From a virus, in IMG/VR virus record IMGVR_UViG_3300007754_000004, positions 1-64,000 of that record: a stretch of 64,000 nucleotides of DNA; one strand, written 5' to 3'. Below the pieces are notes generated by a model. That model was not told where the DNA came from. It did not search any database and worked only from the letters and a program-made list of their open reading frames with translations. Both the position numbers and the translations under genes were made by a program. Below, in pieces: positions 7,949 to 13,754 of the stretch (positions within the stretch are counted from its first letter, which is position 1; each line of letters begins with the position of its first letter).

Positions 7949-8635
7949 CTACTCCCGGTTGTCGGTGACTTCCTTTCCAGCCAGGAAGCGGGCTTCCACC
8001 CACCCCTCTCCCTCGACGTGGAACTTGTGGTCCTCAGTCACGACTACGGTGGTGCCGTCCTCAAAGGTCAACTTGACCCAATTGTCCCGCACGCCGTTGT
8101 TGAACGTATTGGTCACCCGGCTGGTCGTGATCCCACCCTCCGGGCTCCAGGTCAGCACCTCGGGACGGAGGCCCTCCTCCACGATCTCCCGAATCGGGAC
8201 CTGCTCCCCGTTGGCGAGATGGATGAGGGTACCGCCATCGAAGCAGGAGAAACCGTCGAGTTTTTCTGACCCTACGATGCTGGGGAGCCTCCCCGGCCGC
8301 CTCGCGGCGTGGGTCTTCCACCAGCCCTCAAACTCTTTCGGGTTCTTAGACTTGTTCTGGCTCCCCATCGGAGCCGTGTGGGAGAACTTGCTGAAGCTGG
8401 TCGCTTCCAGCTCGTCCTCAGGATCGACGGCGTCCCCCCAGACCATGTCGAGGAATGCTCGACCTCCCTTCACCTCGGGCTTGTTGGGGCTGAACTTCTC
8501 AGCCAGCTCCAGGGCGATCTTGAACTTGTCGTAAGCGGCGTCATAGACCGCGTCGGATACCTCCGGGCTCCCCGCTCGGTAAGCGGCATTCCACTGGATA
8601 AGCTGGGCGAGCTGGGCTGCGATCTTGGACGCCAT
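7949..8635 (-). CDS. ligA: NAD-dependent DNA ligase, N-terminal part (130 aa) fused to a 98-aa split-intein N fragment
   Basis: YRAGSPEVSDAVYD (domain Ia), HTAPMGSQNK, active-site EKLDGFS, then the intein start CFDGGTLIHL. Confidence 0.93.
   Translation of the reverse strand: MASKIAAQLAQLIQWNAAYRAGSPEVSDAVYDAAYDKFKIALELAEKFSPNKPEVKGGRAFLDMVWGDAVDPEDELEATSFSKFSHTAPMGSQNKSKNPKEFEGWWKTHAARRPGRLPSIVGSEKLDGFSCFDGGTLIHLANGEQVPIREIVEEGLRPEVLTWSPEGGITTSRVTNTFNNGVRDNWVKLTFEDGTTVVVTEDHKFHVEGEGWVEARFLAGKEVTDNRE
7952..8245 (-). mobile_element. split intein N fragment (IntN, 98 aa)
   Basis: Block A CFDGGTLIHLANG and block B VTEDHKF; the ORF stops with no block F/G. Confidence 0.92.
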
Positions 8636-8686: not shown

Positions 8687-9379
8687 TCAGTACCAGGAGG
8701 GGGATCTGGTGCCCTCACTCTCGATATCTTCGCGGACAGTCTTCTCAAAGGCGGCCTGCTCCTCCGGCTCCCAGCCTTCCAGGCCCTTCTCCAGGGGCTC
8801 GTAGGGCGGCGGGTAGGTCGTGGCCCCCTCGCTGAACTTCCGCCCCTTGAAGCCGATATGTCGAGCCCACAGGAGGTTCCGGAGGTTGATCAGGTGATCC
8901 AGGCTCTCGTTGTAGAAAGCCACCATCTTGAAGCCCACATAGACCCGGAGAGAGCCCATGAAGATGGCTCCAGCCACGCACCAGTTGAAGAGAGTGAGAC
9001 TCCCGGAGTTGTCGGCCCCCGCGACGAGCCCCATGACGCCCGCGAGGACGGTACCGGCCAGGAAGCTGTAGCTGGCTCGGTGGTGCCGCTCGGCGTGGCC
9101 CTTGAGGTTCTCGACCTTTCGGCGGAACTCGCCCTCCATGTCCCGGGACCTGTTCGCCCGGGTGAGCAGGATCTTCATGGCGGCGACGAACGGAGGCCCC
9201 GGCGCCGCGTTGCACAGCTTGATCGCCCGATCGACGTTGTTCGCCATCACAAGCTTCTGGATCTGGGTGTAGAACGCCTGGGCGTTGATCCGCTCCCGGA
9301 GATAGAACGGGACGAGTGAGAGGAGTGCTGCGAGGGAGAACCCGCCCAGCACGACGACGAAGGGGAGTAGCTGTTCCAT
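8687..9379 (-). CDS. MotA/TolQ/ExbB-like membrane protein (divergent, ~230 aa)
   Basis: Start reassigned to ATG 9379. TM helix followed by INAQAFYTQIQKLVMANNVDRAIKLCNAAP...ILLTRANR, which I recognise as resembling the cytoplasmic loop of myxobacterial TolQ/AglR-type proteins, then two more hydrophobic segments. Confidence 0.65.
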   Translation of the reverse strand: MEQLLPFVVVLGGFSLAALLSLVPFYLRERINAQAFYTQIQKLVMANNVDRAIKLCNAAPGPPFVAAMKILLTRANRSRDMEGEFRRKVENLKGHAERHHRASYSFLAGTVLAGVMGLVAGADNSGSLTLFNWCVAGAIFMGSLRVYVGFKMVAFYNESLDHLINLRNLLWARHIGFKGRKFSEGATTYPPPYEPLEKGLEGWEPEEQAAFEKTVREDIESEGTRSPSWY

Positions 9380-9386
9380 GATGGCG

Positions 9387-9413
9387 TATACGACCCGTCC
9401 CGAGAAACTTTCT
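9387..9413 (-). promoter_or_regulatory. ECF-like promoter motif AGAAAG-N15-CGTATA (probably a leaderless transcript)
   Basis: The -10 element ends 7 nt before ATG 9379, leaving no room for an SD. Confidence 0.6.
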
Positions 9414-9417
9414 CGGG

Positions 9418-9459
9418 AAAAGTGAAAGGGCCCCACACCAGCTTCCTGGGGGCCCTTTC
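9418..9459 (-). terminator. intrinsic terminator
   Basis: 11-bp perfect stem GAAAGGGCCCC/GGGGCCCTTTC followed by ACTTTT on the minus strand. Confidence 0.7.
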
Positions 9460-9497
9460 GGAGGTTTACAACCCCACAGGAAGTCAGTGGGGAGGGA

Positions 9498-9719
9498 GTA
9501 GACACGGCAAGCAAGAGAGGCTTACGGTCCCGGTCTGGAGTCCGTGCCACTCCAATTGATCGGGTTTTTCGCCTGTTAACTCAGATTTCTGGGAAACTCC
9601 TCGTCACCCCACCCGATCACCCCGGGTGGGCCCGGTCCCCGTCCAACGCAACGCCGCGGGGATGACAGCAGGTGACCGATTTACCGCGAACGACTCATCA
9701 GGCGCCCTGCCGTGTCTAC
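9498..9719 (-). ncRNA. candidate structured non-coding RNA (~222 nt), family unknown
   Basis: Closed by a 12-bp perfect terminal stem; several internal helices; promoter motif directly upstream and terminator downstream; no credible CDS. Confidence 0.6.
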
Positions 9720-9720
9720 C

Positions 9721-9747
9721 TATACGAGGAGCCCCCGGATAATTTCC
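9721..9747 (-). promoter_or_regulatory. ECF-like promoter motif GGAAAT-N15-CGTATA driving the candidate ncRNA
   Basis: Motif copy not followed by a CDS. Confidence 0.65.
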
Positions 9748-9756
9748 CCTGAAGCC

Positions 9757-10026
9757 TCAACTTTTCTTGTTGGGCTCTCTCGCTTCAACTTCTGTCCGGA
9801 GCTGGAGGCTGAGAGCCTCCCCCATGACCAGATAGTAATTGAAGCCCAGCCACTCCCCGGAGTCATTGACCACTCGGGTCTTCTCCAGCCGCGTCCCGGC
9901 GGGGATCTCCTCCCCCTGCCCCCACTTCCCGAGGAGGCGGTCTACCAGAGCCATGAGGCCGGCGTTGTCTACCGATTCAGGGCTCTCCCCTTCCTCCGCC
10001 CTGGCGTCCATGACGAGCAGCCTCAC
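9757..10026 (-). CDS. hypothetical protein (89 aa)
   Basis: GTGA overlap with the upstream gene. Confidence 0.6.
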   Translation of the reverse strand: MRLLVMDARAEEGESPESVDNAGLMALVDRLLGKWGQGEEIPAGTRLEKTRVVNDSGEWLGFNYYLVMGEALSLQLRTEVEAREPNKKS

Positions 10027-10388
10027 GTCATCTCCCAGACGGATTTGTGCTCATAGTCTATGGATACCAGCCCCCCCGGCCACACCCAATTCCCCGGAAG
10101 CTTCGGGATGACAGCGTAGTTCTCGGTGCCGGAGCCTCGAAAGCGAGCCGCGATCTGCCCCAGGTGAACCCGGTTGTCCCTGGCGGCGTAGAGGCGACCC
10201 TCTCGCCGTCCGTCGATAGGGACGACGATCAAGCTGAATCTCGCGGGGGAATCATCAGCCAGGGCGATGCCCAGCTCTTTCGGCATCACTCGGGAAATGG
10301 CAGCCATCACCCCCCCGTATTCATCCACCGAGATCAATCGGGCAGCGGTCATCAGTTGACGGAAAATCTCTTCAGCATCCGGTAGCAC
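10023..10388 (-). CDS. hypothetical protein (121 aa)
   Basis: GAGG SD; follows the MTase stop by 9 bp. Confidence 0.6.
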   Translation of the reverse strand: MLPDAEEIFRQLMTAARLISVDEYGGVMAAISRVMPKELGIALADDSPARFSLIVVPIDGRREGRLYAARDNRVHLGQIAARFRGSGTENYAVIPKLPGNWVWPGGLVSIDYEHKSVWEMT

Positions 10389-10397
10389 AAGCAGCCT

Positions 10398-11600
10398 CTA
10401 CCCCAACAGGTCGTCGAATGAAAGTTTCTTCCTAGGTGGGCGGGAGTCTGCCTCCGAATCGATCTCCGCCTGATCCCACGGTCGCAGTTGCCTGTTCCAA
10501 TGTCTGATCCTGGCGTCGGAGAGCAGGAGATAACTCTCCTGCTTTTCGATACCCACAAAATCACGATCCGTGGACAAGGCAGCGATCCCGGTGGACCCGC
10601 TCCCCAGGAAGGGGTCCAGCACCGGGCCCTCTCCGGGGAACTCTTCCAAGAGCCACTTCATGATCGCAGAGGGTTTGACTGTCGGATGGTGGTTCCCTCT
10701 CTTGCGGCCCTCGACGAAGTATTTCTCCATGCCCTCCGGGATCCCTCTCCGCTCTACACCCGCGGTGATATCCCGGTCAGGGAAGTGTTGTTGGAGATCA
10801 GCCAGCTCGGTGGGGTCTTCAGACCCCGGGTACCAGAGATACTCGCCCGTCACACCTCGGGCGAGGTGAGCTGTCCCGGCGTTTCTCTCCGTCTGGGAAG
10901 CCTTCGCCGTGTAGAAGACCTCTCCAGGTTCCTGAGCGAGGAACAAGGCGTCTCGGATTTCAAATCCCTGGTCTTCGGCATGACAGGCCCCCGTGTGACC
11001 GGTAGGCTGGTCTTCGGGAGCGATGAGCATCAGGTGAGCCCCGGGCTTGAGAGCCCTCCAGATCTCTTCCAGCCAGGGGGGAGGGTCTGGGGTAGACCAG
11101 CCTCGGATAATCGCTCCATGAAGCGATGCGTCCTCGTGTCGAGACCAGTCATAGGACTCGGGCTCCAGGCAGATGACGGACACCCCGCCGATGTGGGTCG
11201 GGGTGATCATCGTGTAGAGGTAGTCCAGTAGCTCTTGGGGTAGATCCCGGGTCATAGTCTCTCGCCTTATTTGCTTGAAGAAGCGGGAGGTGTCCCCTGA
11301 AGCCGGGCAGCCAGGGCCGCAAATCCAGTGGGCAACGGTCTCACCCCCTTCCCGCCGACAGCCGGGTCGGTGTATGAGAATCAGGTTCGGGGGCCAGCGG
11401 CCTTCGGCGTTGGTAGGCTGGAATCCTGCTTGTTGCCCGTAGGTCTGCCGGTCGTTCCGAGTTGGCTGAAACGGTCGCTTGTGGTCTCCGTTGGACGAGA
11501 TCCTTGAGGCGTCGATGTTCAACGCCCCGGCTCCGTGAGCGAGAGTGTTGGCGGCGAGGGTGCTCTCTGCCAAGGGCTTTCTCGCGACCGTGACGTTCAC
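10398..11600 (-). CDS. beta-class amino (N6A/N4C) DNA methyltransferase, C-terminal/SAM-binding part (400 aa)
   Basis: ARKPL..LNID..RI, GRWPPNL, SRFF, HPTVKP, VLDPFLGSGSTG, FVGIEK; no intact DPPY. Confidence 0.85.
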   Translation of the reverse strand: MNVTVARKPLAESTLAANTLAHGAGALNIDASRISSNGDHKRPFQPTRNDRQTYGQQAGFQPTNAEGRWPPNLILIHRPGCRREGGETVAHWICGPGCPASGDTSRFFKQIRRETMTRDLPQELLDYLYTMITPTHIGGVSVICLEPESYDWSRHEDASLHGAIIRGWSTPDPPPWLEEIWRALKPGAHLMLIAPEDQPTGHTGACHAEDQGFEIRDALFLAQEPGEVFYTAKASQTERNAGTAHLARGVTGEYLWYPGSEDPTELADLQQHFPDRDITAGVERRGIPEGMEKYFVEGRKRGNHHPTVKPSAIMKWLLEEFPGEGPVLDPFLGSGSTGIAALSTDRDFVGIEKQESYLLLSDARIRHWNRQLRPWDQAEIDSEADSRPPRKKLSFDDLLG

Positions 11601-12196
11601 CCATCCATCTCCAGAATGTTCTCCTGACGGGAGAACAGGGGCTCAGGGCTCCAGTGAGTCCAACAGCGTGCTTCGTATACGGCTGCGGCCCCCACAACCA
11701 CCTGCTCCCTGTTGTCTGCGATCCTCTGGCTCCGGGTGGCGTCCTGACCACAGACGGTGCAGACAGCTCGCAGCTTAACCACGTCCTCCGCTTCTGCCAT
11801 CAGCAGGGGAGCGGGTCCAAAAGGATGCCCCCGGTAATCCAGGTCCAGAGTCGCGATGATCACCCGGTGGCCCCGAGAGGCCAGAGTCCGGGCAACCTGG
11901 ACAACATCCCGGGGGAAGAACTGTCCTTCGTCGATCCCTACCACCTGCACTTCCTTCGGGACCTGAAGCATTCTCTCTACATCCTGTGATGGAATCATCT
12001 CACTCGGAAAGCGGGCATCGGAGTGGGAGTGGATATCGCCGGAGTAGCGAGTGTCGATATCCGGCTTGAAGCATACGACCTTCTGCTTCGCGATGGTGGC
12101 TCGCCTGAGCCGTCGAATCAGCTCTTCTGACTTTCCCGAAAACATTCCCCCAGCGATAACCTCGATCCAGCCTGATTGACTCCTGAACTGTCGCAT
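11597..12196 (-). CDS. tdk: thymidine kinase
   Basis: GGMFSGKSEELIRR, FKPDIDTRY, IDEGQFF, LDLDYRGHPF, CTVCG, YEARC. Confidence 0.95.
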   Translation of the reverse strand: MRQFRSQSGWIEVIAGGMFSGKSEELIRRLRRATIAKQKVVCFKPDIDTRYSGDIHSHSDARFPSEMIPSQDVERMLQVPKEVQVVGIDEGQFFPRDVVQVARTLASRGHRVIIATLDLDYRGHPFGPAPLLMAEAEDVVKLRAVCTVCGQDATRSQRIADNREQVVVGAAAVYEARCWTHWSPEPLFSRQENILEMDG

Positions 12197-12205
12197 CTCA
12201 ACCTC

Positions 12206-12766
12206 CTACCAAACGGTCGCTTTCCCTTCGTGGAAGCGAGAGGGAGTTGCTTCCTCCTGGTCTTGATACCGGCCTAGATAGAGACGAGGAGCACCGGTCA
12301 TGCCCATAAACCAGATCTGGCAGATGCGAACGTTGGGGAGCACTCGGACGGGGTGAATTACGCTCATCTCCAGTGTGATCGTCCCCCGAAAGCCGGTGTC
12401 GATAAACCCCGCCGTCGCGTGAATCTGCATCCCCAGCCGGCCCACACTGGACCGACCATCGACCTTCATCACGTAGTCCCTCGTGTGAATCTTCTCGACC
12501 GTTCTCCCCAGGTACAGCGTCCCCGGGACGAGGACGAGGCCCTCCTCTGGAATGGTCAAGCGAGTCGTCGGATTCTCCCCCGACATAGACAGAGGAGGCG
12601 GGTGTGGGCGGAATCCCGGCCCGTAGGGGAGGTCCCCATACACCAGCAGCTCCGGATGGAGCCGGAGGTCCAGGCTGTTAGGCCCCACGTTCTTCTGCTC
12701 AAAGGGAGAGATTTCAATCTTTCCCTGAGCCACCTGCCGCTCAATTTCAGGACCAGTCAACACCAC
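12206..12766 (-). CDS. dcd: dCTP deaminase
   Basis: GPNSLDLRL, DGRSSVGRLG, TAGFIDTGFRGTITLE, RICQI; start set at the GTG with a GGAG SD. Confidence 0.92.
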   Translation of the reverse strand: MVLTGPEIERQVAQGKIEISPFEQKNVGPNSLDLRLHPELLVYGDLPYGPGFRPHPPPLSMSGENPTTRLTIPEEGLVLVPGTLYLGRTVEKIHTRDYVMKVDGRSSVGRLGMQIHATAGFIDTGFRGTITLEMSVIHPVRVLPNVRICQIWFMGMTGAPRLYLGRYQDQEEATPSRFHEGKATVW

Positions 12767-12975
12767 GTTGCAACTCCAGCAAGCAGGGCGAATCGGTGGA
12801 AGCACCCAGCACACAAGACCCGCTCTCGTAGGTGCCGGGGGACGACTTGACGCCAGAAGTCGTCGGGGACGCGAAAATCGTAATTCATCACGACCCCGCA
12901 GACCTTACAGCTCATCTGCTGGTCTCGTCGGATCGGCCTGGGGGACGGGTTCACGGACACAACCCCACCCATCAT
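12757..12975 (-). CDS. small CxxC...CxxC zinc-binding protein (72 aa)
   Basis: ATGA overlap with the MTase-N stop; CKVC and CAGC. Confidence 0.6.
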   Translation of the reverse strand: MMGGVVSVNPSPRPIRRDQQMSCKVCGVVMNYDFRVPDDFWRQVVPRHLRERVLCAGCFHRFALLAGVATWC

Positions 12976-13754
12976 GGTTTGCGTGCTGTTAACACACATT
13001 CCCATGCCGGTTTTAACGCCGTCCCCCAGCCATCCCATGCAGCGGCTTCCGGTGTCCGGTGGACCTTGTCCGGCCTGTAGTCCGCCTTCAACCCGTTCTT
13101 CGCCTTTCCCGTAGCCCCACCCTTGTCCAGAGCGACTCGGTCTACAGAGGGGCCATGTCCTTGTACTGAACGAGGGTTGCCAAGGAAACGGTCGATCGCC
13201 TTGGAGATGTTGTGTGATTTGGGAAAGCCATTGGCAAAGGCCCACGACCTCATTTCCACATCCCGGAAGCCGGCCCCCTCCATTGCTGCCGCGAGCCGAT
13301 GGAAGGTCCGAGTCCCGCTGAAAGCCACCACGTAGCCTCCCGGGACGAGCTTGTCATAGACCGCCTTCAACCACCGCTGATGCCACAATTGCATCTGCTG
13401 GGCTTGTTTCCTAGCGACTTTCTGACCAAGCTGGTGACCAGAGACAACCGGCTCACCACCCACTCGCCAATCTGGGTCCTCGCAGGAACACTTACGTGAC
13501 CCCCGTAGACGACCTCCACAGGTAGCACACGTCGGGTTCGACCCACCGAAGGAAGTAGTCCCCCCAAACGCCGGCCAGGGGATCTCTCGATCACCTATCC
13601 CCGGTTGAGCCATTCCGCTGCCTGTCTCCCAGAGACGATCCCACTCTTTCCCCATGAATTCAAGCCCATACGGCGGATCCGTCAGAACCAGACCGATTTC
13701 GGGGACCTCCTCCAACCGGGCTAGGTTGTCTCCTTTCAGGAGGAGAACCCTCAT
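12972..13754 (-). CDS. beta-class amino DNA methyltransferase, N-terminal catalytic part (260 aa)
   Basis: TDPPYGLEFMGKEWD, LVPGGYVVAFSGTRTFHRL, GFPKSHNISKAID, GWGTALKPAWECVLTARKP-stop; no FxGxG SAM motif. Confidence 0.88.
   Translation of the reverse strand: MRVLLLKGDNLARLEEVPEIGLVLTDPPYGLEFMGKEWDRLWETGSGMAQPGIGDREIPWPAFGGTTSFGGSNPTCATCGGRLRGSRKCSCEDPDWRVGGEPVVSGHQLGQKVARKQAQQMQLWHQRWLKAVYDKLVPGGYVVAFSGTRTFHRLAAAMEGAGFRDVEMRSWAFANGFPKSHNISKAIDRFLGNPRSVQGHGPSVDRVALDKGGATGKAKNGLKADYRPDKVHRTPEAAAWDGWGTALKPAWECVLTARKP

Follow-up and report, generated by a model that had tools for sequence, protein, structure and literature searches.

Small RNAs embedded in the 3' untranslated regions of bacterial and phage operons, such as those of the DapZ or MicL type, possess an internal promoter and share the terminator of the operon. 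A noncoding element on the minus strand of a marine phage genome resembles these RNAs in several respects: its promoter lies just past the upstream stop codon, it contains no ORF, its predicted transcript ends at the terminator hairpin of the operon, and a single-stranded stretch is located just 5' of this hairpin. The element differs from the DapZ- and MicL-type sRNAs in its predicted size (~295 nt, much longer than typical sRNAs) and in that neither homologs nor a seed-target pair were found. We describe it here as a plausible and well-delimited orphan candidate for a phage ncRNA.

The analyzed DNA, hereafter the window, comprises the first 64 kb (64,000 nt) of an 84,412-bp IMG/VR virus record. 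Since CheckV rates the record as only ~16% complete, corresponding to an estimated genome of ~500 kb, it represents part of a megaphage. The stretch is present unchanged in six DNA runs from two marine/seawater studies, with zero variants across the element, and a 99%-identical strain exists as a 1,848-bp contig. None of the runs that contain the stretch is an RNA run, and the single run labeled as a metatranscriptome yielded no sequence of it. The genes flanking the element are all encoded on the minus strand and belong to a replication and nucleotide-metabolism block, which includes the following features:

Minus strand, member of the block: DnaB-like helicase
10398-13754 (within), minus strand: DNA methyltransferase, split into two genes that enclose those for dCTP deaminase and thymidine kinase
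9757-10388, minus strand: small ORFans of 121 aa and 89 aa, upstream of the element
8687-9379, minus strand: MotA/TolQ/ExbB-like gene of 230 aa, downstream of the element
7949-8635, minus strand: N-terminal part of a ligase with the N-half of an intein splicing domain
Minus strand, member of the block: SF2 helicase

The two upstream ORFs (121 aa and 89 aa) have no Pfam or PHROG family match, and the 230-aa MotA/TolQ/ExbB-like protein has no Pfam match of its own. Metagenome and genome scans with an alignment of ExbB-like proteins returned homologs of the ExbB/TolQ type, and those in named genome records are mostly proteins of Myxococcota MAGs. Because almost all of these relatives come from Myxococcota MAGs and the G+C content of the phage is 61%, the host is probably a marine member of the Myxococcota.

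Several other properties of the block were observed. The genes at 7949-8635 and within 10398-13754 are unusually fragmented. The ExbB-like protein carries an N-terminal conserved motif (QKLVMANNIDRAIKLCNAAP type) that is common almost only to Myxococcota MAG proteins, and its gene has no adjoining ExbD/TolR partner. A 78-nt segment of this gene (positions 9201-9278 of the window) is also matched, with 12 mismatches, by a second, unrelated contig in three marine runs, which may be a homolog of the conserved motif from the host or from another organism in the same samples.

The gap that contains the element extends from the stop codon of the 89-aa ORF (9757) to the ATG at 9379. The phage genome is compact, yet 376 noncoding nucleotides are kept here. 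All three minus-strand frames of the element contain several stops, and its G+C is ~0.60 at each codon position (flat across GC1, GC2 and GC3); the neighboring genes have GC3 of 0.68-0.87 and GC2 of 0.41-0.49. The stops and the flat codon-position profile indicate that the element is neither a gene nor a recently decayed gene. An in-frame extension of the ExbB-like gene to a GTG at 9550 was rejected, as the N-termini of its relatives align with the ATG at 9379 and a promoter copy (P2, see below) is located 7 nt ahead of this ATG.

Promoter copies and candidate terminator bordering the element

A promoter motif with the consensus GGWAAnTTTC-N10-TCGTATA and fixed spacing is present in at least 12 copies across the 84-kb record. 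In the window, 7 matches to the pattern GAAAnTnTC..GGG..TCGTATA were found where 0.01 would be expected, and the heptamer TCGTATA was observed 12 times against 1.4 expected. The copies and the other signals that border the element are as follows:

4194, 8664, 9393, 9727, 31104, 32495, 35219, 36073 and 51322 (minus strand), 47170 and 59583 (plus strand): promoter copies in the window, spanning 4188-59589
75665 and 75935 (plus strand): promoter copies beyond the window in the same 84-kb record, with weaker ones at 70093 (plus strand) and 72831 (minus strand)
9721-9746, minus strand: promoter copy P1 (GGAAATTATC-N10-TCGTATA), from pattern match and PWM
9713-9716, minus strand: predicted transcription start, placed by the spacing at the leaderless copies
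9418-9459, minus strand: intrinsic-terminator-like hairpin (11-bp GAAAGGGCCCC/GGGGCCCUUUC) followed by ACUUUU, pair probability 0.94
9387-9412, minus strand: promoter copy P2 of the leaderless MotA/TolQ/ExbB-like gene, 7 nt before the ATG at 9379

ECF promoters of the sigma-W type have the form TGAAAC-N16-CGTA. We take the phage motif to have an ECF-sigma-like architecture, with AAC at -35 and CGTA at -10. As in sigma-W type promoters, its -35 block contains AAC with TTT next to it, and its -10 element reads CGTA(TA), whereas its spacing is about one base shorter. A gene with sigma-70 region 2 was not found in the 84-kb record.

P1 lies on the minus strand upstream of the inverted repeat, where the initial annotation had noticed a promoter motif, and it proved to be a full-strength member of the family. 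Using a PWM trained on the 11 other copies with P1 left out, we obtained a score of 22.6 bits for P1, which places it at rank 12 of ~169,000 positions; only the 11 training sites score higher, and no non-site position of the genome reaches its score. All other copies precede the start codon of a substantial ORF by 7-29 nt (69 nt in one case), and P1 is the only copy without an ORF start shortly after it.

Exactly 7 nt separate TCGTATA from the ATG at the copies 9393 (minus strand) and 75935 (plus strand), which implies that the corresponding mRNAs are leaderless. By the same rule, P1 transcripts are predicted to start at A9713. With a start near this position, the outer 4-7 nt of the 5' repeat arm may lie upstream of the transcription start, so that this portion of the inverted repeat may exist in the DNA and be absent from the RNA.

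At the other end of the element, the terminator hairpin (9459-9424) is followed by ACUUUUCC, has an energy of ~-30 kcal/mol and clearly exceeds in strength the structures that precede the other promoter copies. It makes a strong candidate for the intrinsic terminator proposed earlier, although it was not flagged by a consensus terminator scan because its U-tract consists of only 4 U. The end of the terminator is less than 10 nt from the -35 block of P2, the promoter that the next gene had been predicted to possess. The -35 block of P2 is itself a perfect palindrome hairpin, CCCGAGAAAGUUUCUCGGG (9397-9415, minus strand), located directly after the terminator U-tract, and this palindrome might serve as an operator or as another hairpin of the terminator type. 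Between the stop codon of the upstream gene (9757) and P1 no hairpin is present; thus, read-through from the upstream operon would also end at the 9459-9424 terminator.

Given the strength of P1, the lack of codon periodicity and the strong hairpin directly ahead of P2, a discrete noncoding transcript of ~295 nt is likely made. The proposal of an independently transcribed unit is in line with these observations: P1, the stops in all frames, the hairpin and P2 support a separate noncoding unit running from promoter to terminator.

Predicted folding and comparison with known RNA classes

The candidate pairings of the element are listed below:

9708-9719 with 9498-9509, minus strand: perfect 12-bp inverted repeat
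9706-9720, minus strand: 5' arm of the inverted repeat (GGUAGACACGGCAGG), which abuts the -10 element
9497-9511, minus strand: 3' arm of the inverted repeat (CUUGCCGUGUCUACU)
9704-9699 with 9575-9570, minus strand: CGCCUG/CAGGCG, as read from the letters
Minus strand: UCCCCG/CGGGGA, pair probability 0.96
9636-9662, minus strand: local hairpin UCCCCGCGGCG...CGUUGGACGGGGA, pair probability 0.87-0.96, the most confident internal helix
9557-9619, minus strand: domain closed by the 9-bp helix UGAUCGGGU/ACCCGAUCA (9619-9611 with 9565-9557), in the minimum-energy fold, pair probability 0.68
9536-9554, minus strand: hairpin UGGAGU-GGCACGG-ACUCCA, pair probability 0.73
9472-9492, minus strand: hairpin CCCCAC/GUGGGG within the C-rich 3' tail, with flanking CCUCC-type motifs, pair probability 0.98

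The perfect 12-bp repeat was confirmed, and its length grows to 15 bp (9720-9706 with 9511-9497) when G-U pairs are counted. Its 12-mer, GTAGACACGGCA, occurs in two inverted copies and nowhere else in the window, and self-BLAST of the 84-kb record adds no further copy. However, the window contains six perfect inverted repeats of at least 12 bp within 300 nt, of which several fall in coding sequence, versus one or two expected by a rough calculation from composition. The 12-bp inverted repeat is not more than chance gives.

Whether this repeat closes the RNA, as had been claimed, depends on the position of the 5' end. When the segment 9722-9416 is folded, the closing stem has a pair probability of 0.93, and the value remains at 0.91-0.94 for any 5' end at 9716 or further upstream. 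It drops to 0.43 for a 5' end at 9715, to 0.11 at 9714 and to 0.01 at 9713, where a local 5' hairpin, ACGGCAGG/CCUGCUGU, replaces the closing stem. Hence, the claim would hold for a transcript that begins at or upstream of 9716 and would fail for one that begins at 9713-9714.

The internal pairs listed in the initial annotation are all complementary where it had placed them, and the 9-bp UGAUCGGGU/ACCCGAUCA pairing, suggested there as an alternative or pseudoknot, belongs to the minimum-energy fold; CGCCUG/CAGGCG and the UUCG hairpin are absent from this fold. The complementarity of CCCACCCG/CGGGUGGG is also real, but this helix competes with the 9-bp helix, and the two cannot coexist because they overlap. 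Five G-runs at 9607-9640 (minus strand) conform to the canonical G-quadruplex motif, which is not enriched in the genome as a whole (14 versus 11.5 +/- 3.3 in shuffles).

The folding energy was compared with two kinds of controls. Relative to dinucleotide shuffles, z = -2.4 was obtained for the 381-nt gap and likewise for the 229-nt core. Among 562 G+C-corrected 230-nt windows taken from this genome on the strand of the element, the core in its best register ranks 18/562, with z = -1.7. For the 293-nt RNA that begins at 9713 the fold has z = -1.45, and a fold as good is reached by 16 of 200 shuffles. The description of the element as highly structured is unsupported, since its energy is unexceptional and its fold depends on the position of the 5' end. 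A multi-branch fold closed by a 12-15-bp stem is not established.

The element was then compared with described RNA families. Scanning the whole window with Rfam release 15 at gathering thresholds gave no match, and searches of 801 nt and 310 nt at E up to 10 gave only weak, terminator-shaped matches to rli56, ctRNA_p42d and BjrC68, confined to the terminator parts of these sRNA models. ARAGORN called no tRNA or tmRNA and nothing tRNA-like. The earlier statement that the element cannot be matched to tRNA, tmRNA, 6S, SRP or RNase P agrees with these negative results of ARAGORN and Rfam (E up to 10).

Two suggestions, a ribozyme and a retron-like RNA, were not supported. The element resembles a hammerhead in having CUGAUGAG (CUGAUGA motif, 9701-9694), CGAAA (9571-9567) and a G-C pair that could close helix II. 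Unlike a hammerhead, it would need a 120-nt insert in helix II, and its sequence does not allow helices I and III to be drawn together with A15.1-U16.1 and a UH cleavage site; the hammerhead-like motifs thus fail on geometry, and no Rfam ribozyme family was matched. The likeness to the a1/a2 arms of retron msr-msd consists in inverted repeats of 12-15 nt (12 bp, 15 with G-U) that bracket a ~200-nt segment, and such repeats occur here by chance. In contrast to retrons, no RT gene is adjacent to the element, and what follows it is the ExbB-like gene with a promoter of its own. The remark that the window encodes no reverse transcriptase can be extended, as RVT_1 was not found in the entire 84,412-bp record (~16% of the genome).

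Other classes were considered and rejected. A group I intron is contradicted by the downstream relatives, which begin at the ATG at 9379, by the ORFan status of the 89-aa ORF and by the lack of an RF00028 match; the flanking ORFs are not two halves or exons of one gene. For a Y RNA (YrlA), no TROVE (Ro60) protein was found in 84 kb, and there was no tRNA-like call and no Rfam match. The riboswitch and cis-leader classes gave no Rfam cis-regulatory match above noise, and P2 lies between the terminator and the ATG at 9379. A type III antitoxin was dismissed for lack of tandem repeats, an inverton for lack of an internal promoter and of rearranged joints, and a MITE because the element is single-copy and has no target-site duplication. 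Neither a CsrA sponge (7 GGA motifs versus ~6 expected from composition) nor an anti-SD role (2 CCUCC motifs versus ~0.5 expected by a rough composition estimate, not significant) was retained.

Search for relatives of the element

No DNA match to the element was found by blastn in distant mode among 50,697 phage records, and protein-anchored searches of IMG/VR, which used both flanking ORFs, the SF2 helicase and the ExbB-like alignment, gave no homolog either, both small flanking genes lacking diverged relatives there. With the DnaB gene, 8 loci were identified. The nearest five share 41-56% identity; they are fragments of megaphages with a G+C content of 38-55%, which have no DNA match to the element and no clustering of TCGTATA. 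Scanning IMG/VR with the promoter motif produced 14 single hits, which corresponds to chance level. In a collection of 5.8 billion proteins, the only counterparts of the 89-aa upstream ORF are near-identical copies, which lie on 8 contigs with lengths of up to 133 kb. Within the 84 kb of the phage itself, we detected neither a paralog of the element nor any long complementarity between it and the other transcripts of the contig.

We also built a covariance model, R1, from the single element sequence. Nothing credible was found with R1 in 5 related records, 46 loci and 156 Myxococcota genomes (5 + 151), the best matches, with E 0.037 and E 0.26, being short. No homolog was thus found in any of the data searched, and the element, a single sequence whose fold depends on the predicted 5' end, is not yet callable as a structured RNA class.

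Alternative explanations and possible role

A possible explanation is a spacer without any RNA-specific function, in which the upstream operon would end with its untranslated tail and terminator, the promoter would be a relic or a spare, and the helices would have arisen by chance in a sequence of 60% G+C. Such a spacer is compatible with the six perfect inverted repeats of at least 12 bp within 300 nt, with the position of the core at 18 of 562 genome windows, with the z-score of -1.45 from the predicted start and with the outcome of the searches for relatives; moreover, no terminator separates the stop at 9757 from P1, so read-through enters the region. On the other hand, a compact phage genome retains 376 noncoding bases at this site, P1 is a full-strength member of its motif family, the tight terminator-promoter junction looks purposeful, and the sequence bears no remnant of an ORF; we consider the spacer unlikely, while granting it a substantial share of the probability. 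The order of promoter, structured segment, terminator and gene would also suit a cis-acting leader of the riboswitch or attenuator type, in which the state of the P1 RNA sets the terminator read-through into the ExbB-like gene. Two GUGGGG segments are available as alternative partners of CCCCAC, a further pairing is possible between UGGGG and the CCCCA of the terminator's 5' strand, and a 5-codon mini-ORF (AUG at 9698) is located near the 5' end. Alternative pairings are, however, easily found in G+C-rich sequence, no Rfam riboswitch or leader was matched at E up to 10, and read-through is unneeded because P2, lying between the terminator and the gene, gives a leaderless mRNA. We regard the leader as improbable. 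A comparably low probability is assigned to the element being the first representative of a new class of large (~300 nt) structured phage RNAs, which would be transcribed from an ECF-type promoter, closed by a long terminal helix and multi-branched, and would act by binding or mimicking some factor of the host or the phage, e.g. as a decoy in defence or counter-defence.

The function might instead reside in the DNA, as a pair of looping operators, as the flanks of an invertible or mobile segment, or as the site of an origin primer or R-loop transcript. This account draws on the start of the inverted repeat directly after TCGTATA, from where it may reach upstream of the transcription start, on the restriction of GTAGACACGGCA to two places in the window with no further copy in the 84-kb record, on the location among DnaB, helicase, ligase and dNTP-metabolism genes, and on the five-run G-quadruplex-type motif at 9607-9640. 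Yet the inverted repeat is at chance level, G-quadruplex motifs are not enriched (14 against 11.5 +/- 3.3), and neither iterons nor an AT-rich stretch nor a target-site duplication is visible in the sequence. In addition, self-BLAST of the 84-kb record gave no second copy of the element, the contigs of the DNA runs contain no rearranged joint, and no recombinase was noticed nearby. A DNA-level element is thus quite improbable in our estimate. Least credible of all is a known catalytic or retroelement RNA (hammerhead, retron msr-msd or group I intron), to which we give almost no weight. It is suggested by CUGAUGAG at 9701-9694 and CGAAA at 9571-9567 with the G-C pair closing helix II, and by terminal inverted repeats resembling retron a1/a2; it is opposed by the lack of an Rfam ribozyme or intron match at E up to 10, by hammerhead helices I/III with A15.1-U16.1 and the UH site that cannot be drawn, by the lack of an RT in 84 kb, and by flanking ORFs that are not halves of one gene.

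The reading that we tentatively prefer, at somewhat less than even probability, is a stand-alone ncRNA unit of a marine megaphage with a probable Myxococcota host, most likely a trans-acting regulator. P1, as a phage promoter of the ECF-sigma type, would fire ~7-8 nt past TCGTATA, roughly at 9713-9716, and the transcript would end at the strong GC hairpin with its short U-tract, at ~9418-9421. The product would be a G+C-rich RNA of ~295 nt with no ORF. Because the terminator lies less than 10 nt before P2, the RNA would be insulated from the ExbB-like gene and form a discrete molecule. The same terminator would serve read-through from the upstream replication and nucleotide-metabolism operon, so the predicted architecture is that of a 3'-UTR-embedded sRNA with an internal promoter. 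It can be speculated that this RNA is a trans-acting phage regulator that is co-expressed with the genes of the same promoter regulon and acts via its local hairpins and the single-stranded C-rich stretches of the CCUCC type just 5' of the terminator.

At present, the value of the element is that of a well-delimited candidate for metatranscriptome mapping and not that of a discovery. If the transcript is real, it would be among the few ncRNA genes defined by a promoter and a terminator in an uncultured megaphage, and its tie to an ECF-type promoter regulon would provide a handle on the timing of accessory functions.
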